From positions 67 through 64,066 of the forward strand of contig JBNPEB010000035.1 of the NCBI GenBank assembly GCA_051117335.1: a stretch of 64,000 bases of DNA. The letters are read 5' to 3'. Shown piece by piece: positions 3,873-23,173 of the stretch. A program made the position numbers and the translations under genes. The stretch is from Elainellaceae cyanobacterium. Lineage in GTDB: Bacteria; Cyanobacteriota; Cyanobacteriia; CAZCXK01. Numbering within the stretch: the first letter of the stretch is position 1; each line of letters starts with the position of its first letter. A model generated the notes under the pieces. It was not told the DNA's origin and did not search any database. It was given only the letters and a program-made list of their open reading frames with translations.

Positions 3873-4645
3873 ACGGTGGGACAGGTAGATGATTAGCCTC
3901 TACTAATCTAATCGAAAGTATGAGTTCTGCCAGCATACGTTGCAAGGCATAGTAGCTTCCATGCCAACCGTCGAGGATGCCGCCTTTGAGGATAAGGCAT
4001 TAGATAAGAATGATCAGAGGAGCGAGGGGCGTGTGTTTGCGGAGGCGATCGCTCCATCCCAATTCTGATGTGGGGGGTTTCCTGCAGCTTTTTGACTTCA
4101 AGGATGGCGTAGCGATCTTGTGCCCAGAGCCAGCGGGTCAGGGATTTGCGATCGTCGTGGTGGATGGGATGAGTCAACCGAGCTGATTGTCCTTTCACCG
4201 TTAGAAGCTGAGTATGTCCGTCGTCGATATAAATAGATTGATCTTTTCGGAATAAAGACTGACGGGGTGGCAGGATGGTGCCGCGCAGGGGTTTGCCAAA
4301 GACGCAATATTTGAAAGGTATGAAGTAGCCGTCGATTTCTGATGGTGGGAATAGTATTTTTAACTCGTGAATGAGTTCGTCGGTCAACACATAGTCTGTA
4401 TCGAGTGACAGTATCCATTCGGTTTGAATATGCTCAGTACCGTAGTTCCATTGATTGGCATGGGTATCAAAGGGACGTTGCAAGAGTTGAACCTGAGGAT
4501 AGCTCTTTAGAATATCGAGTGTTTCATCGGTACTGTCGCTATCGATGACGATGATTTGCGTTGCCCAGGTGAGTTTGTGCAGGGTGCGAGCAATGTTGGG
4601 GGCTTCATTGTAGGTGAGAATGAGCGGCGTGATGGCTTCCAGCAT
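3847..4645 (-). pseudogene. glycosyltransferase family 2 (WaaE/LgtF-like), frameshifted
   Basis: Paralog of 9541-10365. +1 shift at the G6 run 4072-4077; the shifted frame (SELGWSDRLRK..LAP..*CLILKGGILDGW) matches the paralog but has an in-frame TAA at 4000-4002. Confidence 0.8.
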
Positions 4646-5394: not shown

Positions 5395-5547
5395 CTACGC
5401 ATTAGAGCTTGACAGGGCTTGAAGCTTGCGATTCAAGATTGATTGGTAAACTTCGATCAGCTGAGATGCAATGTTGTCCCAGGTGTAGTTTTGCAGGATG
5501 AATTGACGGGCGTGTTCAGCACTGCTGTTCCGGCAGGAATCGCCCAT
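5395..5547 (-). pseudogene. 3' fragment of a GT4 glycosyltransferase (F1)
   Basis: MGD[SCRNSSAE]HARQFILQNYTWDNIASQLIEVYQSI aligns to the C-terminus of 11328-12518 (MGDRAHQFILEYYTWDKIASQLI). Confidence 0.75.
5515..5538. repeat. 24-nt HIP1-inserted element, family B, copy 1
   Basis: GTG[TTCAGCACTGCTGTTCCGGCAGGA]ATCGC; matching empty site GTGATCGC at 6412-6419. Confidence 0.85.
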
Positions 5548-6294: not shown

Positions 6295-6477
6295 TCAAGA
6301 TCCGACGGGTTTTGAAATAGTGGGCTGTTGCTTCAAGATGGATTGATAGACTTCGATGAGTTGGGCGGCGATTTTGTCCCAGGTGTAGTTTTCTAGGATG
6401 AATTGACGGGCGTGATCGCCCATTGCTTTTGCTTCTTCTGGATGTTTCTGGCAGTGGATTAATGCGTTGGCGATCGC
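6295..6477 (-). pseudogene. 3' fragment of a GT4 glycosyltransferase (F2)
   Basis: AIANALIHCQKHPEEAKAMGDHARQFILENYTWDKIAAQLIEVY aligns to the end of 11328-12518; homology starts at HIP1 6470-6477. Confidence 0.8.
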
Positions 6478-7399: not shown

Positions 7400-7530
7400 C
7401 CTCGTTTTGCCTTCTAACGAACTCATCAAACATAGTAAAAAACTGAGTGGCGATCGCATCCCCAGGTGTAGTGTTCTAGAATGAACTGGCAGGCGCGTTC
7501 AGCACTGCTGTTCCGGTAGGAATCGCCCTC
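7400..7530 (-). pseudogene. 3' fragment of a GT4 glycosyltransferase (F3), frameshifted
   Basis: GD[SYRNSSAE]RACQFILEHYTW then +1 shift to DAIATQ; left boundary approximate. Confidence 0.7.
7498..7521. repeat. 24-nt HIP1-inserted element, family B, copy 2
   Basis: GCG[TTCAGCACTGCTGTTCCGGTAGGA]ATCGC; empty site GCGATCGC at 11439-11446 in the intact GT4. Confidence 0.85.
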
Positions 7531-7543
7531 TTCCCTCATCACT

Positions 7544-7830
7544 TCAGGTTCTAAACGATGCTCGCACCTGAGGATGAAGGCTCGCCCCGGTGCGCCCGGT
7601 CACGATCCACAACATCGATCGCCCGATGTCGCGGGAGACATGCCACAGGGTTTCGTTGGGTTGCTTGGAGGGAATGGGGACGGGGGTAGTGATGATGCCG
7701 CGACTGCCGAAGACAAAGGAAGCAATGGCCCCGTGCGCGACGCATATGAAAGTCGGAGGTGATGAGGTAGACGTGGTGGATGTGGCGATCGCCCAAGTCG
7801 CTGACGAGGGAGGTGAAGTTGGTGACGGTG
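7544..7830 (-). pseudogene. YdcF 3' half, copy 2, frameshifted
   Basis: TVTNFTSLVSDLGDRHIHHVYLITSDFHMRRAR, then an extra G and continuation FVFGSRGIITTPVPIPSKQPNETLW; closely similar to 8862-9488. Confidence 0.8.
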
Positions 7831-7835
7831 TTTTA

Positions 7836-8840
7836 TCAATTGTTGGGCGTACACAACTCCACAATTAGGCTATCAGAATCAATGCAGAGTGATTGGTCAA
7901 TAAGTTCTGCTACGGCCTTATTTCCTTCAATACTCAAATGGACACCATCATGAAAATAGCTTTCAACAACAGATGTTGGCAGATCTGACCAAGCGGCTTG
8001 AGTATCAATAATAGGAATGTTCAACTCTTCGAGAATGGATATAAACTCTTGTTTATATTCTGGAGTAGTTGTTTGAGGAATTAAATCTTCCCGATTAGGA
8101 GTAAAAAGAACGAGTATAGGCGTATTGTTATCAACCTGTGAAATAAGTTCTCTCAAATACTCCATATTTTTTGTAAATTTTGCATCGAGAGCAGAAGTAT
8201 TTAGAGTTTGTGGGGATGACTCAGTGGGTAAAAGTCTTGCCATTCTAGGTAACAGATAACGACTGATAACTTCCTGGGTTGCCAGCAATGGGCGAACATC
8301 TGGGTAGCCTGGATGCGTTCCTACGACTTCACTTGTACTCATCGGTTGATATAAGTCATGAGTCCCGATTTGGAGAATGATTGCATCGCTGTTAAATGTC
8401 CCAAATTTTTTGACATAGCCTAATTGATTACCAATGCCCCATGATCCCGCTGAGGCATTGAGTACTTCTGAGGAGTAATTCGAATCAGTAAAGTGCTCTT
8501 CTAAAACTTCTGAAATAGTGTGCTCATGACTGGTTAAGCTACCGCCATTGAGAACGGAATCACCGACCATCATTAATCGCAATGTCCCCTGTTGTTTGGC
8601 TTCAGTAATGGGTTCAGAGCGTTGAGAATATTGGTTATAGAGAATGCGACGGCCAAAACGTTTGAGATCTTGATTGGGCCGAAACCGATAACCTGTCTCT
8701 GAATCGGTTTGGCTTAACACGGGGTATCCAAATCCAAAGCCGAGTCTTAGAGCAATTTCACCAAATGCAGCAAAAAATATCACGGCAACAAGAACCCATT
8801 GCCAATGGTTGCGGGCAGTCTTCAATAATTTCATTATCAA
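7836..8840 (-). CDS. SGNH/GDSL hydrolase family protein
   Basis: GDS block I, NASAGSWG, GTHD and DGVH motifs; N-terminal TM helix. Confidence 0.88.
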   Translation of the reverse strand: MIMKLLKTARNHWQWVLVAVIFFAAFGEIALRLGFGFGYPVLSQTDSETGYRFRPNQDLKRFGRRILYNQYSQRSEPITEAKQQGTLRLMMVGDSVLNGGSLTSHEHTISEVLEEHFTDSNYSSEVLNASAGSWGIGNQLGYVKKFGTFNSDAIILQIGTHDLYQPMSTSEVVGTHPGYPDVRPLLATQEVISRYLLPRMARLLPTESSPQTLNTSALDAKFTKNMEYLRELISQVDNNTPILVLFTPNREDLIPQTTTPEYKQEFISILEELNIPIIDTQAAWSDLPTSVVESYFHDGVHLSIEGNKAVAELIDQSLCIDSDSLIVELCTPNN

Positions 8841-8861: not shown

Positions 8862-9488
8862 TCAGAGTTGAGGATGAAACCTGGCTCCAGTGCGCCCGGT
8901 GATGATCCACAGGATCGAGCGCCCAATGTCGCGTGAGATGTGCCAGAGGGTTTCGTTGGGGTGCTTGGAGGGAATGGCGACGGGGGTAGTGGTGATGCCG
9001 CGACTGCCGAAGACGAAGAAGGCGATCGCCCGTGCGCGTCGCATGTGAAAGTCGGAGGTGATGAGGTAGACGTGGTGAATGCGGCGATACGGGCTGCGCC
9101 CAGGCAAGCCAACGCGAAAGTCGCTGACGAGGGAGGTGAAGTTGGTGACGGTGTCGATGGCGCGACGATCGAGGTGGAGGCGACTTTCGGCAATGGCGGC
9201 GCGTTGAAAGATGGCTTTGGATTCTTGGGTGGGGGCACCGGAAGACACCCAAATGTCTAGATTGGGGTGTTGCTGTGCGAAGAGTGCAGTGAATCTTTCT
9301 CGTTCGGGAATTCCTCCAAGTGTAAGGATGGCTTGAGGAGTGGGGGGGTGGATCTGGGCGAGAATTAGGCGGACGGGAATGAAACTAATGAGAAGGACAA
9401 GGATGGTGATGGTAACGGCAACCCACATTTTGCGATAGATTTTTGGGCGGAGATACATCGAGATTCGGCTGATGAAAATGGTCAGCAT
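8862..9488 (-). CDS. YdcF/DUF218 family protein, copy 3, with an 8-aa insertion
   Basis: DTVTNF and LITSDFHMRRA motifs; VGLPGRSPY segment comes from the 24-nt element. Confidence 0.85.
   Translation of the reverse strand: MLTIFISRISMYLRPKIYRKMWVAVTITILVLLISFIPVRLILAQIHPPTPQAILTLGGIPERERFTALFAQQHPNLDIWVSSGAPTQESKAIFQRAAIAESRLHLDRRAIDTVTNFTSLVSDFRVGLPGRSPYRRIHHVYLITSDFHMRRARAIAFFVFGSRGITTTPVAIPSKHPNETLWHISRDIGRSILWIITGRTGARFHPQL
9089..9112. repeat. 24-nt HIP1-inserted element, family A, copy 1
   Basis: GCGAT[ACGGGCTGCGCCCAGGCAAGCCAA]CGC; empty GCGATCGC at the homologous position 7785-7792. Confidence 0.9.
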
Positions 9489-9540
9489 TCCGCTCTAGTC
9501 TATCTGTTGTGGGGGTTGAGTCACCAGGTATGGGTTTGGA

Positions 9541-10365
9541 TCAATGTTCCTTTGGGTGAGACTGAGAGGTATTAGAAAAATCAGACAGGTCAGCTTCGAT
9601 GAGCTTGATGGAGAGCAGTAGCTCAGCGAGCATTCGCTGAAATGCGTAATACCATCCGCGCCAGCCATCAAGAATGCCGCCCTTGAGGATGAGGCAGTAG
9701 AGCAAAATCACGAAGGGAGCCAGAATTTTTTGCTGTCGAATGCGATCGCCCCAACTCAATTCTTCTAAAGCTGTTTCTTGAAGCTTCTTCACTTCGAGCA
9801 CCATGTAGCGGTCTTGTGCCCAGAGCCAGCGAGAGAGGGGTTTGCGATCGTCGTGATGAATGGGGTTTGTTAAGGATGCTGATTGTCCTTTCACCACTAA
9901 AAGCTGGGTATGTCCGTCATCGATGTAGTGCGTTGGCTTGCCTGGGCGCAGCCCGTCTTGCCTTTTGCGGAAAAGGGCTTGGCGGGGGGGCAAAATGGTT
10001 CCACGAAGGGGTTTGCCAAAGACGCAGTATTTGAAGGGGATGAAGTAACCATCAACGTCTGGGGAGGGGGAGAGGGCTTTTAGTTCATTAATGAGAGCAT
10101 CGGTGAGGACATAATCGGCATCGAGGGAAAGCACCCACTCGGTTTGAACATGGTCAATGCCTGCGTTCCATTGGTTGGCGTGGGTGTCGAACTTTCGTTG
10201 AACGGTTTCGACTTGTGGATAGGTTTTGAGAATGTCGAGGGTGTTATCTGTGCTGAAGCTATCGATAACAACAATGCGATCAGCCCAGGAAATAGGTTCA
10301 AGAGTACGTCTAATGTTATGTGCTTCGTTATAGGTAAGAATTAAAGGTGTGATATTCTGGAGCAT
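9541..10365 (-). CDS. glycosyltransferase family 2 (WaaE/LgtF-like), with an 8-aa insertion
   Basis: ILTYNEA, VIDSFSTD, LSLDADY motifs; 8 extra residues relative to 3847-4645. Confidence 0.9.
   Translation of the reverse strand: MLQNITPLILTYNEAHNIRRTLEPISWADRIVVIDSFSTDNTLDILKTYPQVETVQRKFDTHANQWNAGIDHVQTEWVLSLDADYVLTDALINELKALSPSPDVDGYFIPFKYCVFGKPLRGTILPPRQALFRKRQDGLRPGKPTHYIDDGHTQLLVVKGQSASLTNPIHHDDRKPLSRWLWAQDRYMVLEVKKLQETALEELSWGDRIRQQKILAPFVILLYCLILKGGILDGWRGWYYAFQRMLAELLLSIKLIEADLSDFSNTSQSHPKEH
9933..9956. repeat. 24-nt element, family A, copy 2, in a degenerate HIP1
   Basis: GCG[TTGGCTTGCCTGGGCGCAGCCCGT]CTTGC inside the GT2 gene. Confidence 0.85.
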
Positions 10366-10391
10366 ATTTGATTCTGATATGAGCTGAAAGT

Positions 10392-11252
10392 TTATATATT
10401 CTCAGCAACCGCTAGTAACGAGAAGGTATTTCCATCAGTAGGAGCAAGGCTTCTACCATTTAAAAGGGTGAAATCATAAGATTTCAGAAAATCTAAAACC
10501 TTGTTCTTTTCAGAAAAACCATCTAAATAAACTGCTTTTATTCTTTTTTCATCAAAGAGAGATTTAGCTCCTCTTAACACATTAAGTTCTTGACCTTCAA
10601 CATCAATCTTCAGAATTAGAGAATCTCCATCAAAATTAAATTGATCGAGTCGTTTGCAAGAGACTCTTATGGATCGATCTTTATAATGGTATTTAGATGA
10701 GTTTTCCATAGTTGTGAAAACGTGAGAAGCTGTTCCATAAACAAATTCGAGTTCCCCTTCTTGATCTGATATGGCACAGTTGAAAGATTCGAATTCGTAT
10801 CTCTCTGCATTTCTATTCAATCTTTTATATGTATCTGGATTTGCTTCAAATGAATAAACTCTTAAGTTTTCAAATACTTTCTTATACCGGGAAAGTACTG
10901 ATGAGAATATACCTACATTTGCACCTATATCTACAAATGAGTCACCATCCTTTAGCAAAGCTGATAGATTTAGAAGGATAGAAACCTCATCGCGGAGAAG
11001 ACTACCCTTTCTACACATGTTTGACGCCCTTAAATATCCACTTTCTTTTATGGTGTGAATGTTAATCTTTAAGTCAAACAAATTTACTTTTGTATTCCTA
11101 TTGCCAAACATTATTCTTGATATCCACCATCTGACCGTTGGCTTTTTGTTATAAAACTTGTCAACAAACCACATTAAGCTCATAATCCTACCTCCATTGA
11201 TAATTGGAATTGTGACAACATTAAATAGTTGGTCAATAACCGACGAAATCAA
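10392..11252 (-). CDS. FkbM family methyltransferase
   Basis: FVDIGANVG, FEANP, LKIDVEGQE motifs; true start probably a downstream Met. Confidence 0.9.
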   Translation of the reverse strand: MISSVIDQLFNVVTIPIINGGRIMSLMWFVDKFYNKKPTVRWWISRIMFGNRNTKVNLFDLKINIHTIKESGYLRASNMCRKGSLLRDEVSILLNLSALLKDGDSFVDIGANVGIFSSVLSRYKKVFENLRVYSFEANPDTYKRLNRNAERYEFESFNCAISDQEGELEFVYGTASHVFTTMENSSKYHYKDRSIRVSCKRLDQFNFDGDSLILKIDVEGQELNVLRGAKSLFDEKRIKAVYLDGFSEKNKVLDFLKSYDFTLLNGRSLAPTDGNTFSLLAVAENI

Positions 11253-11327
11253 TGCTTTAGATCAGTGTTCCTAATAAGCAAATCGCTTGATTAAATATAA
11301 GTCCTAAAATGTCGGTTGTACTTTGAA

Positions 11328-12518
11328 TTAAATATAGAGATGAGGCAACTGTTTATTTTTGATAATAGCGTCGTAAGTTTTTATTAATTGAGATGCTATT
11401 TTGTCCCAGGTGTAGTATTCGAGTATGAACTGATGGGCGCGATCGCCCATTGCTTTAGCTTCGTCTGGAGTGCTGAGGCAATCAATCAGCGCTTTTGCAA
11501 TGGCGTCGGCATCGATATCGACAACGTGGGCAGCTTTCGCAAGCTTAGCTTCTGGGAAGTTGCATCCGGTAGTTATCACACAGGGAAGTCCTGAGGCCAT
11601 TCCTTCTAACATAGACATGCTAAACCCTTCAGAATAGGAGGGCGCGACGTAGAGATTTGCAGCGGCGAGGGCTGCATATTTGAGGTCTCCCGTGAGCATT
11701 CCGGTAAAGGTGACGGCATCCAGACAATTTGCTTTAGAAAAGTATTCTTTAGCTGTTGGGAGAAAGCCAATATTATCTTGTCCGGCAACGATGAGATGAG
11801 CCTTGGGAAACTGTTGATAAACAAGACCGAAGGCTTGAGCCAGGAGGTCAAGCCCTTTTTTGGGGTCAATGCGGCCTAAAAAGAGGATGAGCTGTTTACC
11901 TGATGTGGTTGGAAACCTCTGGAAGAAGAGATCGGGTGAGGGCAGAGTTTGAAAGTCTTCGGCGTGGATACCGTTTGGAATTTTGGTCAATGGGGGCTTC
12001 AGCTTAAGAGGTTGGATGCCTTCAGCTTCTTGAGTGGCAAGGACGTGGATGGTGCTGGCTGTTTGTAGGGTTGGCTGTTCGAGAAGTCGATAATAGAACT
12101 GCTTTTTCCAGGCTTTGTAGGATAAAGCCCAGGGTTCTAACATGCCACGGGGAGTAATGATGTAGGGGATATTTTGCCAGCGACAAAACCAGTGAGCAAG
12201 GGTGATGTTTAGGGAGAAGATAGCGTTGGTGTGAACCAGGTCGTAGTCTTTAATGTGATTCCAGAGCCAGGTCAGAAGGGATGGGCTAAGTTTATAGTCG
12301 CTGAAGGGCAGATAAGGAAAGTATTGGATTCGATACTGAGGGTAAGTAATCCATTGTTTGAGGGGAACGTTGAGAGCAACGGAGGTGTCGGCGTTGGTCG
12401 TTACGATATCGATGGAAATGCCGTGTTGTCCGGTGGCTTTTGCGAGTTCGAGGATGCTTTTGGAGGGGCCACCATAGCTAAGACCAACGGCTGGAAGAAT
12501 AATGAGTATTTTCATCAA
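11328..12518 (-). CDS. glycosyltransferase family 4
   Basis: FLGRIDPKKG and PSYSEGFSMSMLEGMASG motifs. Confidence 0.92.
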   Translation of the reverse strand: MMKILIILPAVGLSYGGPSKSILELAKATGQHGISIDIVTTNADTSVALNVPLKQWITYPQYRIQYFPYLPFSDYKLSPSLLTWLWNHIKDYDLVHTNAIFSLNITLAHWFCRWQNIPYIITPRGMLEPWALSYKAWKKQFYYRLLEQPTLQTASTIHVLATQEAEGIQPLKLKPPLTKIPNGIHAEDFQTLPSPDLFFQRFPTTSGKQLILFLGRIDPKKGLDLLAQAFGLVYQQFPKAHLIVAGQDNIGFLPTAKEYFSKANCLDAVTFTGMLTGDLKYAALAAANLYVAPSYSEGFSMSMLEGMASGLPCVITTGCNFPEAKLAKAAHVVDIDADAIAKALIDCLSTPDEAKAMGDRAHQFILEYYTWDKIASQLIKTYDAIIKNKQLPHLYI

Positions 12519-12529
12519 TAGAAAAGCAA

Positions 12530-13156
12530 TTACTGATGAGGCTTAAAGAAGAACGCGGTATCGGTTACGCCATTACTTGTCCAGATTCTTCGCCAACCCT
12601 GTGTTTTTTCTAAAAATACTTTCCAATGCTCTGATGCAGGTTCCATTTGATGGGTTCTCGAATTTGGCGAGTAAGAGTGACAAGGCAAGAACCAGTTTGC
12701 ATTATCCAGAACTATAAATCCTCCACTCTTGACCTTACTTATAGCTTTCAGAGCACATAAATCACGCTGAAAGTAACCATCTACTAATGCAAAATTAAAA
12801 CTTTCATCCTCAACACTATTGACTACATTGACGTATTCTTGAGGGTCAACTATCAAGTGGTAGTCTCAATTACTCAGTTTTACCTCTTTTGCCTTTTGCG
12901 TTACATGATTATACCAATCGGTGTTTGACTCAATGCTCATGAGATGGTGAATGCGTTGAGCGAACCAAATCGTGCTACGACCAGATCCCCACTCTAGACC
13001 GACATCATCTTTTTGAAGGTAAGTAGAGAGAATGCTAATAGCTTGCGATGTTAACCAAGGTTCATCAGGATGAGTGTTCTCATAAATTGCTAAAGCTATT
13101 CGATTATAAATATACTTAGGACTCCAGTGATTAATTTTTCGCATTCTTTCATTCAC
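12530..13156 (-). pseudogene. class I SAM-dependent methyltransferase split by an in-frame TGA
   Basis: LEWGSGRST motif in the 5' ORF, LVDG..R and LDNA in the 3' ORF; both in one frame across TGA at 12866-12868 (SN*DYHL). Confidence 0.8.
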
Positions 13157-13162
13157 CTATAT

Positions 13163-14359
13163 TTATCTTAGTGCTAGGAACTGTAATAAAGCTCTGTCGA
13201 AAATACCGACTTTAGGTAATGGTTTCTCCAAAGCAACTTCGACCGCTTTTGCTAAATTAGTAGCAAAAGTTTTAGGGGACCATCTACTGATGATTTCTCG
13301 ACTAGCTTGCCCCATAGCTGCCAAATCACATTGCCCGGAAGATATTTTGAACATCAGGTCGGTAAGCTGATTGATGTCATAAGGGTCGAAAGTATAGCCG
13401 TTACGGCCTTCTTCTACTAAGTTAGGAGTGCACCCACAATGGCTGGAAACTAATACAGGAAGCTCTGACGCCATGGCTTCATTGACGACTAAACCCCATT
13501 GTTCTGTAGTACTGGCATGGACGAAGCAGTTGGCAAGCCCATAGTAAGCAGGCAATTCATCATAATGTTTGAAACCAGGAAGATGAATAAACTCGCTTTG
13601 TTGTAGTTGATCAATTTGAGACTGTAGTGCAGGTCTTAATGCGCCATCACCTAGAAGCACCAGATGCCAGGGCTCAGTCTTGGTTTGGGCATGATACTGA
13701 GCGTAAGCTTGGACAAGCCGAAATAGATTTTTTTTGTCAACAAAGCGAGCTGAAGCGAGAAAGAAGTGCTCTGGTAACCTAAGTTGGCTTCGTAGCTTTT
13801 GAGATTGCTGACGAAATTGAGCAGCTCCCTGGGTAAAGTATGTATTATCTACAGCATCATAGCCTAAGAAAATATTTTCTTCCGAAACGCCAAGCTGCAT
13901 GAGATATTCTTTATGTGAATGCCCCCCAACTAGAGTGCTTGAGCATAATTTAAGAATTCTCCTCTTTAAGTACTCCTTTAAAGAGTTACGTTGCATGTCA
14001 TGCCTTGTACTCTCTGACATAACAACTAGAGGAATTCTCATCTTTCGGCCAACGGACAACGATGTGAGTGAGCCAAAATCATTCCAACCATTAACCACTA
14101 AGACATCAGGGTTATGGGTCTGAAGAGCATTGACAAGATGACTCTCCAATACTTTTGGTCTGTAAAATTGTTCATTAGGTCTGTCAAATAAAGACACTTT
14201 TTCATAAATGCAATGTCCACTGGCTGTACCCCAGGGATAAGATCCTTTAGCAAACCACTCTAGCCCCAAGACTCGAAGATCGTGCTCAGCAGCGCTCAAC
14301 CTTGCATGATGATATGGACCAATATGATGGAAAATAATTGCTACTTTAGAAGGCCGCAT
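13163..14359 (-). CDS. glycosyltransferase family 4
   Basis: ARFVDKKN and EQWGLVVNEAMAS motifs. Confidence 0.92.
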   Translation of the reverse strand: MRPSKVAIIFHHIGPYHHARLSAAEHDLRVLGLEWFAKGSYPWGTASGHCIYEKVSLFDRPNEQFYRPKVLESHLVNALQTHNPDVLVVNGWNDFGSLTSLSVGRKMRIPLVVMSESTRHDMQRNSLKEYLKRRILKLCSSTLVGGHSHKEYLMQLGVSEENIFLGYDAVDNTYFTQGAAQFRQQSQKLRSQLRLPEHFFLASARFVDKKNLFRLVQAYAQYHAQTKTEPWHLVLLGDGALRPALQSQIDQLQQSEFIHLPGFKHYDELPAYYGLANCFVHASTTEQWGLVVNEAMASELPVLVSSHCGCTPNLVEEGRNGYTFDPYDINQLTDLMFKISSGQCDLAAMGQASREIISRWSPKTFATNLAKAVEVALEKPLPKVGIFDRALLQFLALR

Positions 14360-14491
14360 GAAATACCAACTTTGACTTAGTTTATGCTGTTTAACGTGTT
14401 TTCTATTTAATGTGTTTTTGCTAGTTTTGAAATATCTATCATCAAAAGTTTAGAAGAAGTAGATGTAGATAAAAAAACAGAGTTCAACTCA

Positions 14492-15856
14492 TTAATTCCA
14501 AGTGCGTCGGTCAATCACCCATCGACGCTTACCTGCTCGATTAGTTTGCAGATCCGTTACATAATTAAAGGGTGCATCGGAGAAGAACGAATGAACTTGA
14601 CCTAACTTATGCCGAATATTTTGTTCTAAATCAGGATGTATTTCTTTATTTACAATCAATGAAAACTCGGGACCATCATCATTTAGTATGAGTTGTACAT
14701 TAAATACTGAAGGTTCATCCTTAAAACAATGTACAAGGGCAACACTATGAATACTAGTGCCATCAGATAAGGTAATCATGTCATTTACGCGCCCTTCTTG
14801 CTCATCAAAAGCAACTACTAGGCCAAACTCGTCATGCTCTATTCCCGTGATAATATCCCCCTGTTTGTAACGAATCAAAGGTACATAACGTTTATAGAGG
14901 GTAGTAACCAAAGCAGCGCCCCGATTTAGGGACTCAAGAGAACCTTCTGTTTCCAGAATATTTAATTCAGGAAACAACGTATAAGGTGAATCATCAATCT
15001 TAAAGCCGACATGCCCAAAATCTACACCACCAAATTCTTGCACAATTGGGCATCCAAACACGGAACGTAAGAGATTAAATGTATCTGAACGTGGCGGGGG
15101 TTCAGCACAAGGCATAACAAATTTTACTCCGGCTTGCCTTAATGCTTTATGAAAATCTGGAGTATACCGGCATAATAAATCTAAGAGAGCAGCATAGCCG
15201 ATTAATCCTGCCGGTCGAATACGGATAATCTCCTGAGCTATTTGAAGCGCCTTTTCAGGATCAAGAGTATAAGCATCAAAGCGATGATAACCAGCTATCC
15301 AGTCTTTGGCTTTCCTAAGCGTATGATTGTAATAACGTCGCCATCCAGAACCTAATAAATGAGCATGTCCCCAAACTAAAACGAGTTGATTGTCTAGTGT
15401 ATAGCCAAGACGAATCCAAGGTACTAGCTTTGCGATTCTAAGTAAGGCTGAATTATGTCGCCATTCCCCTATTTGCAAAGGTTGGCCTGTTGAACCAGCA
15501 GTTGAGGTGTAACAGTCTGGTGGACCTGAAAATCTATGAAATTGTGCCTGTTTTTCCTTTAGAGTTATCCTATCTAAAATTGGAATGTGATAAAAATCTT
15601 CCCAAGATTTGATCTCTTGTGGCGCTTTGCCTTGAGCAACTAGACTTTGATAGTAAGGTACATCTGTAATACAATCCTGCCAAATCCGACGCAGTTTTTT
15701 TAATTGATTTGAGCGTTCAATATTATCAATCTTTGGTTGAAGTTGCACATTCCATTTTTGAGCTGCATCTAATTGAGATCGGAGTGGTAGCAACCTAGTG
15801 TTTCGCAGAAACATAAATATTGAAAAAATTAACAACTCGAAGGCAAACACAAACAT
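14492..15856 (-). CDS. phenylacetate-CoA ligase family (CapK-like) protein
   Basis: TAGSTGQP P-loop-like motif, QEFGGVDFG, PLIRYKQGD, EGRVND. Confidence 0.8.
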   Translation of the reverse strand: MFVFAFELLIFSIFMFLRNTRLLPLRSQLDAAQKWNVQLQPKIDNIERSNQLKKLRRIWQDCITDVPYYQSLVAQGKAPQEIKSWEDFYHIPILDRITLKEKQAQFHRFSGPPDCYTSTAGSTGQPLQIGEWRHNSALLRIAKLVPWIRLGYTLDNQLVLVWGHAHLLGSGWRRYYNHTLRKAKDWIAGYHRFDAYTLDPEKALQIAQEIIRIRPAGLIGYAALLDLLCRYTPDFHKALRQAGVKFVMPCAEPPPRSDTFNLLRSVFGCPIVQEFGGVDFGHVGFKIDDSPYTLFPELNILETEGSLESLNRGAALVTTLYKRYVPLIRYKQGDIITGIEHDEFGLVVAFDEQEGRVNDMITLSDGTSIHSVALVHCFKDEPSVFNVQLILNDDGPEFSLIVNKEIHPDLEQNIRHKLGQVHSFFSDAPFNYVTDLQTNRAGKRRWVIDRRTWN

Positions 15857-15893
15857 TTTGACTTTATATCGCTATCAATTTAATAAAATGAAT

Positions 15894-17153
15894 TTACATA
15901 CTACGATAAAGTCCTAAAACCTTAGCCTTTTTAACTTTCGCATATAGAAGAGCTGGACCGAGGAAAGCTACGATCTTTGGCCAAGTCATAAAAAAGCGAT
16001 CAGTACTGTGGGTAATAGATTCTAATGCTCCAGCAAAAACTAGCATCAGTAAAACTTGTGCAATGAAATGCCCTTGATTTGCGGCCCTAGAGAAACTTCT
16101 CATGAGATAAGCAATCAACAAAAACTTAACTGCACCGAAATACCAAAAAGACTCAAATGCATCAGACATTCCTGTATGCGTTGTTCCCGTATGAGGTATA
16201 TGACCAAATTCAAGCAATGCTGCTGGGTCTTGAGGTAGCATCAGACCTTGTTTTGTATCTTCTCCAATCCATTGACCAGGCACATAGAGTCTTATAAAGG
16301 AATTCCAGTGGCTAAGTCCAAAATCAAAATTTCCGCGTCGATCAAATGCTTCGATATTGTATGTAGCGTTTCGAAGTTCCAGACCACCTTTCGTAAAGAT
16401 TTCACGCAGATTACCAACATAATCAATTTGCGTGGCAGCAGACAAACCAGAGAAATCTTCACCAATAACAACACTTCGATAGTCACCAATGCTATTAATC
16501 CACAACGTACCTATCACTAGAATGCCAGCAATAAAAGCTCTGGGGGGCAACTTTCGATAACGAAACCACAATGCCAGACCAATAATGATTAATAGTTCTA
16601 TAGCAGATCTACGACGCCCCTGCATGACGATGCGATCAAAATAGAAAATTAAGTTGTAGCCAATGATCATGAGTGACCATTGCGAAGGCTTATGGATATG
16701 GCTGACTATCGCAAGCACCAGGCCAAAAGTTAAAAGACTTGAAAAAAACGCAAATATTGTAATTGGGCCACTCCATCTAGTTCCCGCATCGGGACTGAGT
16801 AAGCTGACTTGATAGAAAAAATAACTCCCAGCCAGAGAACTTATGGCTGCTGCAATCAGTAAACGTCGATGACTAAAAGGCCAGTTTAGAGCATTGAAAG
16901 GACGTTTATTAAGTGAGTGACCTATCCAGCAAGACCAGACGCATAGTAGCGTCATGAAAAGAGCTTTGTTGATAGCACCTGGGGGTAAACTGAGTGAGTT
17001 TATACTCAAGCCAATGAACTGAGGAATTACCCAACCAGAAAAAACTGCTGCAGCCAAGAAGGGATATTGTAATAGGTTCTTTTTATCTTTAAAGCCCCAT
17101 AGTAGAAGTGTCAGGCAAGAACCAATTAGACCTAAAAGCAATATCAAAGTCAT
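15894..17153 (-). CDS. probable Wzy-type polysaccharide polymerase
   Basis: About ten hydrophobic segments, GRR and R..YN motifs, located in a polysaccharide cluster. Confidence 0.65.
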   Translation of the reverse strand: MTLILLLGLIGSCLTLLLWGFKDKKNLLQYPFLAAAVFSGWVIPQFIGLSINSLSLPPGAINKALFMTLLCVWSCWIGHSLNKRPFNALNWPFSHRRLLIAAAISSLAGSYFFYQVSLLSPDAGTRWSGPITIFAFFSSLLTFGLVLAIVSHIHKPSQWSLMIIGYNLIFYFDRIVMQGRRRSAIELLIIIGLALWFRYRKLPPRAFIAGILVIGTLWINSIGDYRSVVIGEDFSGLSAATQIDYVGNLREIFTKGGLELRNATYNIEAFDRRGNFDFGLSHWNSFIRLYVPGQWIGEDTKQGLMLPQDPAALLEFGHIPHTGTTHTGMSDAFESFWYFGAVKFLLIAYLMRSFSRAANQGHFIAQVLLMLVFAGALESITHSTDRFFMTWPKIVAFLGPALLYAKVKKAKVLGLYRSM

Positions 17154-17170
17154 AGTTGTGATGAGTATCT

Positions 17171-18421
17171 TTAGCTGGCAGAATACATGACTGCTTGTTT
17201 AAGGGTTTCCAAAGCAGTTTGCTGGCTTTGAACTAAACAGTTCTGTAAAAGATTAACTGTTTCCTCATCCAAAGCACTGTCATAAAAACAGAGCAAGGCA
17301 TCACGAAGAGCTGGGGAGTCGCGAATGGGGACTATCCATTTCCTTAAGCTCTCATAGTTAGAGATGATAGAACCTGCATGATCGGTAGTAATGACAGGTA
17401 AGCCATGTTGCAGCGCCTCATAAGTGACCATCGCCGATCCTTCACAAATCGAGGGAAGTACAAATACATCTGCCCATTGATAAAGTGCTGCCATGTCAGA
17501 GCGCGGTACACGACCTAAAAACTGGCATACATCAGAATATCTATGAGTATTTTCATGCTTTATTTCTATCGTTCCGGCCACTTTACAAATAAATGGTATT
17601 TGTCCTTTAAGTTTTTGGAGCGCTTCTAATAAATAAGGAATTCCCTTTCGTAAGCCCACAGAACCAGCAAATAGAATATGTAGTCCATCCTTTCGCTTTT
17701 TCCAAGGAGAGCCAAACTCTTTAATAAAAGAAGTTTCAGCTTTAAGTTTCCCTAAAGGAACAACAGAGATTTTTTCAGGTTTCACACCTCTAGCTCTTAA
17801 AGAATCCTTGACGAAATATGAACCACAGATAATATGGTCTGCCAAATCTTGTTCCTGCTGCTCTCGCTCAGCAATCTCTACGTCTGCTTCTGTCAAGCTA
17901 ATGTCGCGAGATGCCCAAACAGGCCAAAGAGCCATCTCTTCTTGCAGAAGTTGATAGTAATAGCTACGCTCTGCAAGGGTCTGGTCTAGGATGCATCGCA
18001 ATCCTTGTTCTTTTGCATAGCGAAATAGTTCCAGGCAAGCGCCATTAAAGCCATAGACTGTATTGGCTTCGCCTAACCCATGTTGGATAATTCGATGACA
18101 AAATGATTTCCCTGCTTTCAGACAAATAGATGATACATTATCACTTTTTGAAAATCTTAGATTCTTTGCATATTGGTAGCCAAGCCATGGAAATTGGATA
18201 ACTTTTGCAGTATCAAGTTTCGGTTCATATCGGTTACTAGCCTTCTTGAGAAAGGTTGGTAAGGAATCAATCCCGTCTAATTTTCTAAGTAATATAAATG
18301 GCCAACTATTACCTGCATAGAAGTCTGTATGGAGAGTGTCAAGAATTTCCCATTGATGGAATAAAGTCGGTTCTTGATAATGTTTTCTAGCGCCAAGCTG
18401 AGCAACTAGTATGTTGATCAT
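17171..18421 (-). CDS. glycosyltransferase family 4
   Basis: FAGSVGLRKG and LPSICEGSAMVTYEAL motifs. Confidence 0.9.
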   Translation of the reverse strand: MINILVAQLGARKHYQEPTLFHQWEILDTLHTDFYAGNSWPFILLRKLDGIDSLPTFLKKASNRYEPKLDTAKVIQFPWLGYQYAKNLRFSKSDNVSSICLKAGKSFCHRIIQHGLGEANTVYGFNGACLELFRYAKEQGLRCILDQTLAERSYYYQLLQEEMALWPVWASRDISLTEADVEIAEREQQEQDLADHIICGSYFVKDSLRARGVKPEKISVVPLGKLKAETSFIKEFGSPWKKRKDGLHILFAGSVGLRKGIPYLLEALQKLKGQIPFICKVAGTIEIKHENTHRYSDVCQFLGRVPRSDMAALYQWADVFVLPSICEGSAMVTYEALQHGLPVITTDHAGSIISNYESLRKWIVPIRDSPALRDALLCFYDSALDEETVNLLQNCLVQSQQTALETLKQAVMYSAS

Positions 18422-18507
18422 TTTTACTTTATCTCTTGGTTATAGAGTAATTTTGATAGAGCCTTAATCTCATGTTTAAGATATCTCTAAATCGGATATC
18501 TAGGAAT

Positions 18508-19746
18508 TTATTCAAGCTTATTGAAAAGAAAAATTCTTGTTAATAGCAACATAGTAGCTAGCATATAGCTTGCAGATAAAGCAATTCCAAGACCAATTAA
18601 AGGATTGCTATATAGTTTAAGAAAAACTAAAAGTGAACAAAATGCGAATCCAAAATATTGCCCACTGCGTCCTAGTAACATCAATATATGCATCTTCCCC
18701 TTAGCAATAAAATATGATTTAAGCAGATTAAACAGAGTAGCACTTAATATGTAGCCATTCATAGAGAAGAATATTGCTACCACTGGTCGCCATACTTCTC
18801 CAAATATCATAGGAACTAATAAAGGAATCCCAAGTGCCATCAATACTATTGCTAAAGTAAGGAATCCAAATATTACCTTCAAACTTTTAATCAAAAATGA
18901 TTTTTGCCCATCAGCAGGATTTCGATGGCTAAAATAATTAATAGCCATTCGTTGTGAAAATGGTTGTAAAAACTGATGAGGTAGGATTGCAAGACGTTGA
19001 GCTTGGAAAAAATAACCTGCTCCTGTCTCTCCTGAAAAAATCCCTACAGTTAATATTACAAGCCGTCCAAATGAGCTTTCTAAAAAACCATCGAGCCAAA
19101 ATGCTCGAACTTGCTTGAAAAGTTCTTGCCAATCCCTGAGTTTAAGCCATCGTAATGGAATAGGTTGTATTCCACGTATGTACTTCAATCCTAGGATCAA
19201 GCTTCCTTGACGGACAAGCTCACGTGCATACAAGACAATTGAGCCTATTCCAAGTAATGCCCCTATTACAGCGAATATATGACCTGAGGAATGTGCTATC
19301 GTTTCTAATAAACTTAAATTCTTATATCGAAAGTTACGTTCATATAAGTTGATTTGCATTGATATCCAGTTCGTGGACAACGAACTTACCAAAAGTAAGG
19401 AAGCTTTTATATCAAGTTTATTGATTAAATATAGGATAGTTGAAGCAGCTATCAAGCCAACAAGGTTTTGCACAACATTTGCAGCTGCATACAAACTCAA
19501 TTTATCTTTTAATTCATCTTTTGGGGTTCTTAAGACAACGGTTCCGATAGGGATACTAATTATTGATTGAGCTAAACCAATATTAGCCATAACAATTGCA
19601 AAGCGACCGAAATCCTCAGGTAAAAGTATTCTAACTAATACAAGATTAGCTAAAAATGCTGTTGCCGCCTGAAAAACTGCTCCGCTCATCATCCATGCTG
19701 CATGACGGGCAATACTGCTTTGAACGCCTTTGAATCGTTTTCTCAA
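18508..19746 (-). CDS. Wzx-type oligosaccharide flippase
   Basis: LVRILLPEDFG motif and multiple TM helices. Confidence 0.85.
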   Translation of the reverse strand: MRKRFKGVQSSIARHAAWMMSGAVFQAATAFLANLVLVRILLPEDFGRFAIVMANIGLAQSIISIPIGTVVLRTPKDELKDKLSLYAAANVVQNLVGLIAASTILYLINKLDIKASLLLVSSLSTNWISMQINLYERNFRYKNLSLLETIAHSSGHIFAVIGALLGIGSIVLYARELVRQGSLILGLKYIRGIQPIPLRWLKLRDWQELFKQVRAFWLDGFLESSFGRLVILTVGIFSGETGAGYFFQAQRLAILPHQFLQPFSQRMAINYFSHRNPADGQKSFLIKSLKVIFGFLTLAIVLMALGIPLLVPMIFGEVWRPVVAIFFSMNGYILSATLFNLLKSYFIAKGKMHILMLLGRSGQYFGFAFCSLLVFLKLYSNPLIGLGIALSASYMLATMLLLTRIFLFNKLE

Positions 19747-19804
19747 ATAATGTTACTCCCTTAAGTATATTTATATAAAATTTGCAATTCAAAAAAGAAG
19801 TAAT

Positions 19805-20929
19805 TCAGCTTAGATGTATCGCAACTATGCTATCGTTTTTATTCTTATCAACACTGATTAATTCCACAAGAGTTCTTTCAATCCATTTCCTGAATAAGTG
19901 AAACTCCGATTCAATCTTAGTTAAGTCAGCTACATAAGCACCAGTTCTGGGATCGCAAGATATTGGGGCACGCTCAAAAATCTGTGGTCGTCTGTCGTTA
20001 GACTTAATATAATTTGAATAAAAAACTACAGGTTTTCCTGCAGCTAAAGTCACAACACATGAATGAACTCTATCTGAAATGGTAAGAGAAGTTCCCTGAT
20101 ATAAGCTTAAGTACGACAATGGGTTGAATGAGAGATATGAATTAGGCTTTGAAAAATCAACATTTATAAAGCTCGTCCCTATTCCATGATTAGGTCTGAT
20201 TATTTCATAAGAATCATAGCTGGAAGGAACATTTCTTAAAAATTCAAAATGCCTTAAATATTTCCAAAATAAACTATATTTTTCAAGCCTATAAGGCTGA
20301 ATATTAATATTCACTATTTCTTCATTCTCGATTTTTATGTAAATGTTCGGTTCAAAGTTTTTGTAGAATGAGAGAGTGATATATTTGTTGCTGCTTTTCA
20401 ATTTTGGCAATGGGCATAAAATATATGAGTAAAAAGCGCAGCATAAGCCATCATAGCAATTCTTAATAAATGGATTTAGTAAATCAAAAGTGTACCTATC
20501 CCTGCTCGATAATCCTAGTGGAGGATATTCTTGAAGGAAAGAAATAATTTTACTTAACTCGTGAGAATTTTCTTCTAAGCTAGAGTGAGAACTAAGGATA
20601 AGATAATCTGCTCCTTTCCTTTTAATCTCCTCGATAAAACTAGCATAATTTTCTAGGAAGCCAGCCCTGAATATTGGGCCAGAAAAGATATATATGTTTC
20701 CATCATAAATTTTCGATATGTTAAAAGCATTGTTCTTAAAGCGTTTTTTAGACGGGCTATTCAAACGAAATGCACGATTGATAGGACCATCTATCATGGC
20801 TACATTCGAGACATTTCCATACATTGACTTAAGCAAGTAATATATGGGGAACTGATAAAACCCGTCTCCTACATTGTTCCAAGTTGAGTTTTCGATTAAG
20901 ATGCTCTTCTGCTCTACGCATTTAGGCAT
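19805..20929 (-). CDS. polysaccharide pyruvyltransferase family protein
   Basis: NVGDGF N-terminal motif, SSRDRYT, ISDRVHSCV. Confidence 0.7.
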   Translation of the reverse strand: MPKCVEQKSILIENSTWNNVGDGFYQFPIYYLLKSMYGNVSNVAMIDGPINRAFRLNSPSKKRFKNNAFNISKIYDGNIYIFSGPIFRAGFLENYASFIEEIKRKGADYLILSSHSSLEENSHELSKIISFLQEYPPLGLSSRDRYTFDLLNPFIKNCYDGLCCAFYSYILCPLPKLKSSNKYITLSFYKNFEPNIYIKIENEEIVNINIQPYRLEKYSLFWKYLRHFEFLRNVPSSYDSYEIIRPNHGIGTSFINVDFSKPNSYLSFNPLSYLSLYQGTSLTISDRVHSCVVTLAAGKPVVFYSNYIKSNDRRPQIFERAPISCDPRTGAYVADLTKIESEFHLFRKWIERTLVELISVDKNKNDSIVAIHLS

Positions 20930-21307
20930 TTTTAGTTCTCCTGATTTATAGCTCTTACCGAGTCAAAAACTTTTATCAAAAGTCTGTGAAATCCAAAAGG
21001 GCAATAGAAGCATTGCCTAGACTTTGATAAGAAATCAACATGACCTATTAGTGCAGTACTTAGTAGCAACATGTTTTATCCGCTCTGCTCCGCAGATAAG
21101 TATGATATGAACTTCACCCATACGGCCTTTCATCCCATACAGCAAAACGCCTCTCATCATCTCTGTTCAACCTTTTGAATCAGCCATCAGGACAATGGGC
21201 GATACGCACACAGCGCAGGTAAATTAACGCCACAATTCACCCGCAACATTCTTAGTTCTCATCCCAAAAATCTAAGGATGTCGCCATTCCGTCTCCATGA
21301 ACACGAC

Positions 21308-21334
21308 AAAAAAAGAGTGAGCACTGCTCACTCT
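21308..21334 (-). terminator. intrinsic terminator in R1
   Basis: AGAGTGAGC-agt-GCTCACTCT stem followed by a T-run on the minus strand, downstream of the PIN gene. Confidence 0.75.
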
Positions 21335-21499
21335 CTAATCAAGAGGTTTGATGATGACCCTAACCATGCTCCATCAGCGCATGACCCAAAATCTAGATTA
21401 AGAGCCATAGCGTTCCAAACAGAAAACGGACACCCGTCAACCGAGACAATAAACCTGTAGACAGTCCTGACCCCATCGAAACCGTGAAGATTCAGGGCG

Positions 21500-21523
21500 T
21501 TGGCTTGCCTGGGCGCAGCCCGT
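21500..21523. repeat. 24-nt HIP1-inserted element, family A, copy 3
   Basis: GCG[TTGGCTTGCCTGGGCGCAGCCCGT]ATCGC at the right edge of R1. Confidence 0.9.
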
Positions 21524-21546
21524 ATCGCCCCTTCAAAACCCACCTT

Positions 21547-21936
21547 TCACAGTAACTTTCCATCAAGCTCCTCATACTTGGAAAACTGACGATCAACTGA
21601 CATTAAATCGCAATCGTGAGCGATCGCCGTTGCAATAATCAATCGATCTTGTGGATCTCGGTGATGCTCTGGAAGGTCTACCGCAATACTTGCAATTTGT
21701 GGAGTGATAGACAGGAGAGTAACATCAGAACCCTCAAGTGCTCTTTCAAACCAGGTTATTCGATCAATCGACAACTCGATGCGCCCATGACCGTCTAGCC
21801 AAGCAACCTCAAAACAACTAATAGCAGACACTGCCACAGCATCGCTCGACTCAATCTGTTCCTTTCGCGCTGCTCCAAGCTTCGCAATGTCTTCGTTAAT
21901 CCACCACAGCCAGATGTGAGTATCCAAAACAATCAT
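21547..21936 (-). CDS. VapC-like PIN toxin (PIN1)
   Basis: MIVLDTHIWLW, SAISCFE, HRDPQDRLIIATA motifs; ATGA overlap with the upstream antitoxin. Confidence 0.9.
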   Translation of the reverse strand: MIVLDTHIWLWWINEDIAKLGAARKEQIESSDAVAVSAISCFEVAWLDGHGRIELSIDRITWFERALEGSDVTLLSITPQIASIAVDLPEHHRDPQDRLIIATAIAHDCDLMSVDRQFSKYEELDGKLL

Positions 21937-22214
21937 TGAGGAAGATTCCAATCACTTTCCGGAATCGTATCAATGATGTCGCCTAAAGTTGTCATCTTTC
22001 CCGCAATATCAGAGTGAGGAGCACGTCGCTTAGTTGTTGGGGCACTCACAGTGTCAATCACCAGAAAAATAGCCTCAAACTGCTTATTCGGTGGTAACTT
22101 AGGGACATGCTTTAAGTTCCCCGATGCATCTGTTTCCAGCATCAACCGTTCTGCATCCATTGCTGAGTCTCCCATTAACCTGGCTTCTCTACGCTTATAG
22201 CACAGTCCCAGCAA
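21933..22214 (-). CDS. putative VapB-like antitoxin AT1
   Basis: Small gene coupled to PIN1; true start probably MGDSA or MDAER. Confidence 0.7.
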   Translation of the reverse strand: MLGLCYKRREARLMGDSAMDAERLMLETDASGNLKHVPKLPPNKQFEAIFLVIDTVSAPTTKRRAPHSDIAGKMTTLGDIIDTIPESDWNLPQ

Positions 22215-22300
22215 TCATTCACACAGACGCAATACACACCACGTGTAGATAGGTCACGCCACGGATTACTCGCAACTTTCTTAGCTCTCATCATGCACAC

Positions 22301-22560
22301 CTGAGGATGCCGCCATTCCGTCTTCATGAACACGACGAAAAAAAAGAGTGAGCACTGCTCACTCCTTGATAAAGAGGTTTGATGATGACCCTAACCCTGC
22401 CCCATCAGCGCATGACCCAAACTCTAGATTAAGAGCCGTAGAGTTCCAAACAGAAAGCGTACACCACTCAACCTAGACAATAAACCTGTAGACAATCCTA
22501 ACCCCATCGAAACCATGAAGATTTAGGGACTTTTACTCGCCTGGGCATCACCCGTATCGC
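22301..22560. repeat. non-coding repeat R, copy 2, ending in a degenerate family A element
   Basis: Alignment to R1; GCCTGGGC..CCCGTATCGC at 22539-22560; terminator-like hairpin 22338-22364. Confidence 0.88.
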
Positions 22561-22604
22561 CCCTCTTGGCCTCCACTCACCCTACACACGACTTGGCAAA
22601 CTTT

Positions 22605-22661
22605 ACGAAGAAAAAAGGGTTGTGGGCGCGCAACGCGCGCCCACAACCCTTTTTTCTTCGT
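22605..22661. terminator. perfect 27-bp inverted repeat, probable bidirectional terminator / REP-like palindrome
   Basis: ACGAAGAAAAAAGGGTTGTGGGCGCGC-aac-GCGCGCCCACAACCCTTTTTTCTTCGT. Confidence 0.75.
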
Positions 22662-22742
22662 TGCAATTGGAGAAGTTTGCCAAGTCGTACCTACAAACTC
22701 TGAGGGTGAATCATCAGGATGGTGTTATCAGAAGAGAGGGCG

Positions 22743-22766
22743 TTGGCTTGCCTGGGCGCAGCCCGT
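22743..22766. repeat. 24-nt HIP1-inserted element, family A, copy 5
   Basis: GCG[TTGGCTTGCCTGGGCGCAGCCCGT]ATCGC. Confidence 0.9.
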
Positions 22767-22798: not shown

Positions 22799-23173
22799 CT
22801 ACAACCGTTCAAGCAGTGGATCAAAAAGCTTTAAATCAGGAATCCACCGGAAATCATCCGTATTGTGGGTCAGTAGCGTTAGGTCATACCGGAGAGCAGT
22901 TCCCGCAACCAATGAATCTCCTAGTGACAATTTACGCTGTTGTCTCAGTTCAATCGCTTGAGTCGCAACATCATGCGTAACGGGCAGAATATCCGTAACG
23001 TCAAAAAATTCCTCAAAAAATTGGCGATCGCAGTCACTCAGCTTGTGATATCCAAAGACCTCAACATAGCTGACTAGAGACACTGAAGGAGCATGCTCAG
23101 CAATAAAATCCCGTAACACTTCGTTTTGAGGCTGAGCCGCATAAATAATGAGATTACTATCCAGCAACATCAC
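22799..23173 (-). CDS. VapC-like PIN toxin (PIN2)
   Basis: LLDSNLIIY, SYVE, LGDSLVAGTAL, THNTDDF motifs; ATGA overlap with AT2. Confidence 0.9.
   Translation of the reverse strand: MMLLDSNLIIYAAQPQNEVLRDFIAEHAPSVSLVSYVEVFGYHKLSDCDRQFFEEFFDVTDILPVTHDVATQAIELRQQRKLSLGDSLVAGTALRYDLTLLTHNTDDFRWIPDLKLFDPLLERL

Follow-up and report, generated by a model that had tools for sequence, protein, structure and literature searches.

Few words in any bacterial genome are as over-represented as HIP1 (GCGATCGC), the function of which is debated. No DNA transaction is known to us to target a specific bond in HIP1 other than the inserts of the SDR5 type, which the literature has treated since 2008 as a peculiarity of Nostocaceae. 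SDR5 of Nostoc punctiforme and its relatives is said to have been described by Elhai et al. in Genome Research in 2008 (18:1484), reportedly with the proposal of an RNA intermediate. It is 21 nt long, occurs in heterocystous cyanobacteria (PMC13756078) and inserts after HIP1's third nucleotide and before its fourth (PMC4390886); outside Nostocaceae no SDR-like repeats were found (PMC5861425). Here we describe family A, a 24-nt repeat (TTGGCTTGCCTGGGCGCAGCCCGT) found in a 64,000-nt stretch of contig JBNPEB010000035.1 (assembly GCA_051117335.1, Elainellaceae cyanobacterium); this whole stretch is referred to below as the window. Family A is gained precisely at one bond of HIP1, with a fixed polarity and without target duplication, the gain being seen at ~40 unrelated sites from several genomes and lineages. 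It is a distinct SDR5-type family from a lineage said in the literature to have no such repeats, and we consider it probable that it is a mobile micro-repeat nesting in HIP1 as SDR5 does while having a sequence of its own.

The window contains four exact copies of the 24-mer and no other match at up to three mismatches, with none expected from shuffled sequences. The flanks of three of them, GCG and ATCGC, join into a HIP1 split after base 3, and the copy at 9933 is located in a near-HIP1 site (GCG/family A/CTTGC). In the fifth, decayed copy the first hairpin of the element is gone and the second is retained as GGG-CATCA-CCC. All five copies listed by a first-pass annotation of this DNA were recovered by the window scan and by reading the flanks. 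The annotation also regarded the insertions as independent. The contexts do differ, but the decayed copy is positionally homologous to the one at 21500, and, since these two terminate homologous non-coding repeats (R2 and R1, respectively), they descend from a single ancestral insertion duplicated along with repeat R. The third repeat, R3, was considered as an empty allele of this site and rejected, as its homology stops short of the site. HIP1 itself occurs 76 times in the window against 1.5 expected. No copy was seen in 31–64 kb at first pass, and the empty part is in fact larger, as 26–64 kb has no family A despite 56 HIP1 sites. Four independent filled sites and 20 empty ones in 1–26 kb, compared to 0 and 56 beyond, give a hypergeometric p of ~0.007.

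Two of the copies lie within genes that have paralogs in the window, ydcF copy 3 and GT2 copy 2. According to a repeat search and DNA alignment, the paralog register jumps by exactly 24 nt at both sites. In ydcF, the uninterrupted segment 7730–7831 of copy 2, which includes GCGATCGC, corresponds to 9029–9088 plus 9108–9154 of copy 3; in GT2, the paralogous blocks 4077–4231 and 4244–4543 correspond to 9773–9927 and 9964–10263, with offsets of 5696 and 5720. Removal of the 24 nt restores GCGATCGC exactly and leaves no target duplication. At the protein level, the Asp of G-D-R is replaced by V-GLPGRSP-Y in ydcF copy 3, while the insert of GT2 copy 2 reads DGLRPGKPT, the net gain being 8 aa in each case. 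Both 8-codon additions had been proposed at first pass, including the opposite orientation and the imperfect flank of the GT2 insertion, and the paralog offsets bear them out.

The closest YdcF ortholog, from a Leptolyngbyaceae metagenome-assembled genome (MAG), is 85% identical by BLASTP (89% in the alignment), and the closest GT2 ortholog is 86% identical (88% in the alignment) and has 266 aa compared to 274 aa in the window. The 8-residue insert is absent from all 19 YdcF and 18 GT2 homologs aligned (37 in total), the closest orthologs included. At the insertion site, the DNA of the YdcF ortholog and paralog reads GGGCG/ATCGCC without interruption, and the closest GT2 ortholog (contig L051) has GCGAG/CGC, one mismatch away from HIP1. 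Several more distant GT2 orthologs have R-S-H at the site, as G CGA TCG C would encode. Both host genes (ydcF copy 3 and GT2 copy 2) are full length when compared to their homologs. Precisely these 24 bases are missing from the paralogs and the closest orthologs, in which HIP1 or near-HIP1 is intact at that point. The 8-aa additions are therefore lineage-specific insertions of exactly 24 nt that occurred after the split from orthologs 85–89% identical. The suggestion that the element was recently mobile and keeps the reading frame is thereby upheld, and the possibility, raised together with it, that outgroup orthologs carry the same 8 aa is not borne out by any of the 19 and 18 homologs. Modelling of the inserts, proposed at the same time, was informative for one protein. 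In the AlphaFold2 (AF2) model of YdcF, which has a predicted local distance difference test score (pLDDT) of 83.7, the insert falls in a loop between helix 113–126 and strand 139–145, with a pLDDT of ~71 compared to >85 on either side. The GT2 model is poor (pLDDT 54.5, below 50 in the insert region), and no solved homolog structure covering the GT2 insert was found.

Table 1. Family A and family B copies in the window, with the unfilled counterparts of the two coding family A sites.
Feature	Position	Strand	Context
Family A copy	9089–9112	-	Within ydcF copy 3 (gene 8862–9488, -); same orientation as the gene
Family A copy	9933–9956	+	Within GT2 copy 2 (gene 9541–10365, -); orientation opposite to the gene
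Family A copy	21500–21523	+	HIP1 closing non-coding repeat R1 on the 3' side; 24 nt past the stop of ORF 21547–21951(-)
Decayed family A copy	~22531–22555	+	3' end of repeat R2
Family A copy	22743–22766	+	Intergenic HIP1; 33 nt past the stop of ORF 22799–23173(-)
Empty HIP1	7785–7792		ydcF copy 2 fragment; unfilled counterpart of the 9089 site
Unfilled GT2 counterpart	4232–4243		GT2 copy 1; empty site between 4236/4237; matches 9928–9963 of copy 2
Family B copy, 24-mer TTCAGCACTGCTGTTCCGGCAGGA	5515–5538	+	GTG/family B/ATCGC, same bond as family A; in GT4 3' fragment
Family B copy, one mismatch	7498–7521	+	GCG/family B/ATCGC; paralogous GT4 3' fragment

The two unfilled paralogs are themselves degenerate. 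GT2 copy 1 (3908–4645, minus strand) loses similarity to all homologs past approximately residue 200 (...ETPHIRIGMERSPPQTH...) and is probably a frameshifted pseudogene, and ydcF copy 2 (7544–7864) is a 3' fragment.

Outside the window, scanning of 185,579 species genomes (one per species) for the exact 24-mer has found it in only one Elainellaceae MAG. Both exact copies there are flanked by GCG/ATCGC and lie in genes (coding for a Ser/Thr kinase-WD40 protein and an alpha/beta hydrolase), with three further variant copies in the same 8-kb locus. A metagenome scan, in which the loop and one 3' base were left free and most positions were fixed, returned 42 loci, ~33 of them cyanobacterial; nine matches without HIP1 flanks (L006, L016, L027, L030, L031, L033, L034, L038, L039) were left out as chance. 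The loop differs between lineages: it is GCA in the window and the MAGs, and GTA in the dominant metagenome variant. Contigs L049 and L051, chosen because of the orthologs they carry and not for the element, each have a family A copy of their own at other sites; one of these copies adds GVGLPGRSPY to the tail of a GT4 protein, an addition that the GT4 of the window and that of L049 do not have. Carriers outside the window include Elainellaceae and Leptolyngbyaceae MAGs. Among 72,556 plasmids no cyanobacterial one has family A, the only matches being chance ones in proteobacterial and actinobacterial plasmids; viral contigs and Rfam gave no match either, and a search of sequencing runs for carriers produced two weak ones only (share 0.06). 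Isocitrate dehydrogenase (Icd) encoded in the window is 97% identical to that of an Elainellaceae MAG. A syntenic core contig of this close relative, L053, has ~89% nucleotide identity to 30.6–43.5 kb of the window and contains neither a copy nor any indel of at least 12 nt, so that this region offers no polymorphic site. Icd and the syntenic contig thus place the host among non-heterocystous, Leptolyngbya-like cyanobacteria.

When all 47 distinct HIP1-type sites are considered together, the 5' TT end of the element always faces GCG and its 3' end faces ATCGC. Thirty-nine distinct sites have at most one mismatch to GCG/ATCGC, and no copy is located at another bond. The preferred target is longer than HIP1: GG precedes GCG in 49% of filled and 24% of empty sites (p=0.0009), and C follows ATCGC in 85% and 60%, respectively (p=0.0014), so that the extended target is GGGCG^ATCGCC. 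With coding status defined as location within an open reading frame (ORF) of at least 120 aa, 27 of the 47 filled sites (~57%) are coding, compared to 493 of the 584 empty HIP1 sites (84%) in the same DNA. Insertions are therefore depleted in genes yet far from excluded from them. The 27 coding insertions occur in both orientations and in five of the six frames; the sixth frame, which contains TAG in the GTA variant (the commonest one), was never seen among them, whereas the GCA variant of the window is stop-free in all six. Owing to the depletion in ORFs and to the absence of the stop-giving frame, the coding copies look like tolerated survivors and not like a purpose. The role in protein diversification proposed at first pass is accordingly not supported by the data. 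All the same, the element accounts for odd 8-residue inserts in conserved cyanobacterial proteins, such as VGLPGRSPY, DGLRPGKPT, LACLGAAR, TGCAQASQ, and RATPRQAN.

Family A can be written as TT-[GGC TT GCC]-T-[GGGC GNA GCCC]-GT, i.e., a 2-nt leader, a mini-hairpin, a 1-nt linker and a second mini-hairpin. In 18 distinct copies, 95.6% of cells are paired in this two-hairpin structure, compared to 18–63% when the partners are slid. Compensatory double changes affect two pairs, with T-A in place of C-G in hairpin 1 and A-T in place of G-C in hairpin 2. The ends of the element, TTGG... and ...CCGT, are not inverted repeats.

For comparison with SDR5, 200 kb of the N. punctiforme plasmid pNPUN01 were scanned for split HIP1, and GCG/TAGGCGTAGCCCGCCGTAGGC/ATCGC was found. 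With its flanks, the 21-mer TAGGCGTAGCCCGCCGTAGGC occurs in 156 places in 57 plasmid records (PLSDB), nearly all of them from Nostocales. We infer from its length, bond and host range that it is the published SDR5. Its layout, TA-[GGC GTA GCC]-C-[GCC GTA GGC], and its bond are the same as in family A. The two share insertion between nucleotides 3 and 4 of HIP1 without target duplication, a length of ~21–27 nt divisible by three, a layout of two predicted mini-hairpins with GTA/GNA triloops, a presence inside conserved genes as well as between genes, and signs of recent mobility with no known enzyme. In addition, the GTA variant of family A, dominant in metagenomes, has an 11-mer, GGCGTAGCCCG, in common with the 21-mer. 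The bond, the layout and this 11-mer could be taken to mean that family A is simply SDR5, the refuting outcome foreseen at first pass, but we find this very unlikely. The lengths differ (24 and 21 nt) and the shared 11-mer forms hairpin 2 in family A and hairpin 1 in the 21-mer, so the sequences are not collinear. Family A has no match in cyanobacterial plasmids, Nostocales ones included, where the 21-mer is so frequent, and the only species genome with the exact 24-mer is the Elainellaceae MAG. Its hosts are non-heterocystous Elainellaceae and Leptolyngbyaceae, not Nostocaceae, and the exact copies that can be counted here amount to only a handful per genome. Since layout and bond are alike while the shared 11-mer is non-collinear, family A is of the SDR5 kind without belonging to the SDR5 sequence family, and the suggestion that it may be a relative of Nostoc SDR5 holds in this sense.

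A second family of the window, family B, is unrelated to family A in sequence and occupies the same bond. Its two copies, located in paralogous GT4 fragments, probably derive from one ancestral insertion, and their empty counterparts are found at 6412–6419 and 11439–11446. The layout TT-[CAGC ACT GCTG]-T-[TCC GGCA GGA] has the same build as that of family A. The phenomenon is thus broader than reported, as families A and B in Elainellaceae/Leptolyngbyaceae agree in their bond, in their length class and in being built of two hairpins. We speculate that HIP1 may serve throughout the phylum as the landing site of two-hairpin single-stranded DNA micro-elements of ~21–27 nt, moved by HIP1-specific nicking at GCGAT^CGC; families A, B and SDR5 may then be unrelated in sequence and built alike. 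So wide a generalisation is unlikely at present, but, if true, it would give HIP1 a part in a concrete DNA transaction, and no smaller site-specific mobile elements would be known.

Other known elements are less similar. REP sequences and REPINs are mobilised by RAYT (HUH Y1) transposases (Bertels and Rainey, 2011, PMC3116915). Family A resembles them in being very short, hairpin-forming and non-autonomous, in occurring sometimes as inverted pairs and, in its GTA variant, in having a GTAG motif. However, REPs lie outside genes and are not tied to one fixed target octamer, while more than half of the family A copies are in ORFs, and the spacing of family A inverted pairs is gene sequence and not part of an element. 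Like the IS200/IS605 elements and their miniature derivatives, which move by single-strand "peel and paste", family A inserts beside a fixed sequence of 4–5 nt (GCGAT^ on one strand), duplicates no target, has hairpins close to its two ends and is of defined polarity with respect to the bond. It is about 10 times shorter than known derivatives, which leaves no room for guide sequences, and its adjacent copies have opposite orientations. As this is the usual arrangement of close neighbours, strict strand specificity of the IS200/IS605 type is unlikely. Like miniature inverted-repeat transposable elements (MITEs), family A is a small non-autonomous dispersed repeat; unlike them, it has no terminal inverted repeats or target-site duplication and is 24 nt long compared to ~100–600 nt.

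The orientation of neighbours is best seen in close pairs, which are 380–840 nt apart and oppositely oriented: 3375/3777 in L001, 2570/2950 in L005, 8547/9075 in L020, 886/1519 in L015 and 9089/9933 in the window. Three of the pairs each lie within a single ORF. Such clustering exceeds the expectation from one copy per 50–100 kb, with local copying and local tolerance as candidate causes.

As for the mechanism, family A is best read as a non-autonomous micro-repeat that is copied into HIP1 at GCG^ATCGC (GCGAT^CGC on the other strand) without target duplication and irrespective of the orientation of genes. The active form would be a single strand folded into the two mini-hairpins. DNA would be favoured over RNA here, since the main loop corresponds to C(GNA)G, a triloop motif that is unusually stable in DNA mini-hairpins. 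Enzymes of the PvuI/AsiSI type cut at GCGAT^CGC, and an activity acting in trans may nick HIP1 at the same position; a site already filled could then serve as the template from which the element is copied, the half-sites of HIP1 providing short homologies. Cutting at HIP1 has already been raised as the reason for the precision of insertion (PMC4390886). The 8-aa protein inserts would be tolerated by-products, as permitted by a length divisible by three and by the stop-free window variant. This enzyme-dependent nick-and-copy scheme is a tentative one, which we find plausible without considering it the likelier outcome, and several points weigh against it and against the two-hairpin form. Both the enzyme and the mechanism of family A are inferred. 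The covariation comes from only 2–3 diverged copies, in a collection for which the scan pattern fixed most positions, and the folding energy is no better than that of shuffles (z from +0.9 to -0.7). The fold of minimum free energy is a different, single hairpin, and G-T wobble changes do not clearly pick a strand (4 vs. 2). The frequent opposite orientation of neighbouring copies is contrary to a strictly replication-strand-specific mechanism. Finally, the name SDR5 for the Nostocales 21-mer rests on the three published descriptors given above.

The main rival explanation dispenses with dedicated machinery: family A would spread from one HIP1 to another through gene conversion or through template switching guided by microhomology. 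With its end at ...GGCG, a nascent strand would pair with another, filled HIP1, copy the 24 nt and return via ATCGCC, so that specificity would be a matter of homology. The presence of the same half-sites at every copy and the enrichment of GGGCG/ATCGCC flanks at filled sites agree with this, as does the lack of a transposase-like partner in the window. The local clusters, i.e., the close pairs described above and four copies in 14 kb, fit nearby donors, but may also stem from tolerance in accessory DNA. On the other hand, homologies of 3–6 nt are very short for recombination, and copies in near-HIP1 sites (9933; L001:3777; L004; L041) are poor in right-hand homology. Homology copying would not require families A, B and the Nostocales 21-mer, unrelated as they are, to have the two-hairpin layout and the T-rich 2-nt leader in common. 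For these reasons we regard template switching without an enzyme as rather doubtful.

It is still less probable that family A is a selected functional module, whether as a cassette diversifying proteins, as a site for regulation or protein binding, or as a recombination site marking the edges of cassettes. In favour of such a module one could cite the in-frame length and the six open frames of the window variant, the copies at 21500 and 22743, which closely follow toxin-antitoxin-like genes on the 3' side and border repeat R, and contig homologies that end 7–25 nt from the element (L017/L025, L003/L015), but the latter possibly reflect assemblies broken at repeats. The lower share of filled than of empty HIP1 sites in ORFs, the decay of the R2 copy and the lack of an Rfam match speak against selection, and the peptides vary with frame and orientation, which makes a common protein function impossible. 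That the element is an ancestral segment lost by deletion elsewhere, or an artefact of chance or assembly, has practically no probability: no chance matches are expected, the identical 24-mer is found in unrelated genes and independent assemblies, and 37 of the 37 homologs examined are without the insert. We therefore retain the reading of family A as an SDR5-type mobile micro-repeat, for which the clean empty/filled pairs in intact genes constitute well-defined substrates for a mobilisation assay.

Several minor observations concern the copies in metagenomes. The homology between contigs mentioned above (L017 2410–2482/L025 1438–1510; L003 1761–2164/L015 861–1268) ends past the 3' side of the element and continues on the 5' side, and the homology of R1 and R2 in the window likewise ends past the 3' side; these ends may be recombination junctions at filled HIP1 or assembly breaks. 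At the site shared by L003 and L015 the element is 100% identical, with flanking identity of just 88% (under neutrality, P ~0.05), whereas ~8 changes have accumulated in the R2 copy of the window. Copies of family A may be either homogenised or left to decay. In L025, the sequence at 1243–1266 (minus strand) reads GCGATCGC-CCCGTAGCC-TGGGCGTAGCCCGT-ATCGC, immediately following an intact HIP1; it has kept hairpin 2, has other sequence in place of hairpin 1, and may represent a nested or rearranged insertion.

In the window, the 5' edge of R1 has at 21207–21230 (minus strand) a 24-mer, TTAATTTACCTGCGCTGTGTGCGT, flanked by GCG/ATCGC. It coincides with family A in 15 of 24 positions and differs mainly by transitions. 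Possibly it is an inverted copy that has decayed and that brackets R1. Each of the repeats R1–R3 contains a terminator-like hairpin, AAAAAAAGAGTGAGCACTGCTCACTCT, and an inverted repeat of 27 nt (ACGAAGAAAAAAGGGTTGTGGGCGCGC), perfect and with a spacer of 3 nt, is located at 22605–22661, between R2 and the 22743 copy. The region 10400–21000, which contains polysaccharide-synthesis genes, is a low-GC island (36–43% compared to ~50%), probably acquired horizontally; HIP1 is entirely absent between 11446 and 21620. Family A copies are found on both of its borders, those at 9089 and 9933 on the left and those at 21500 and 22743 on the right.

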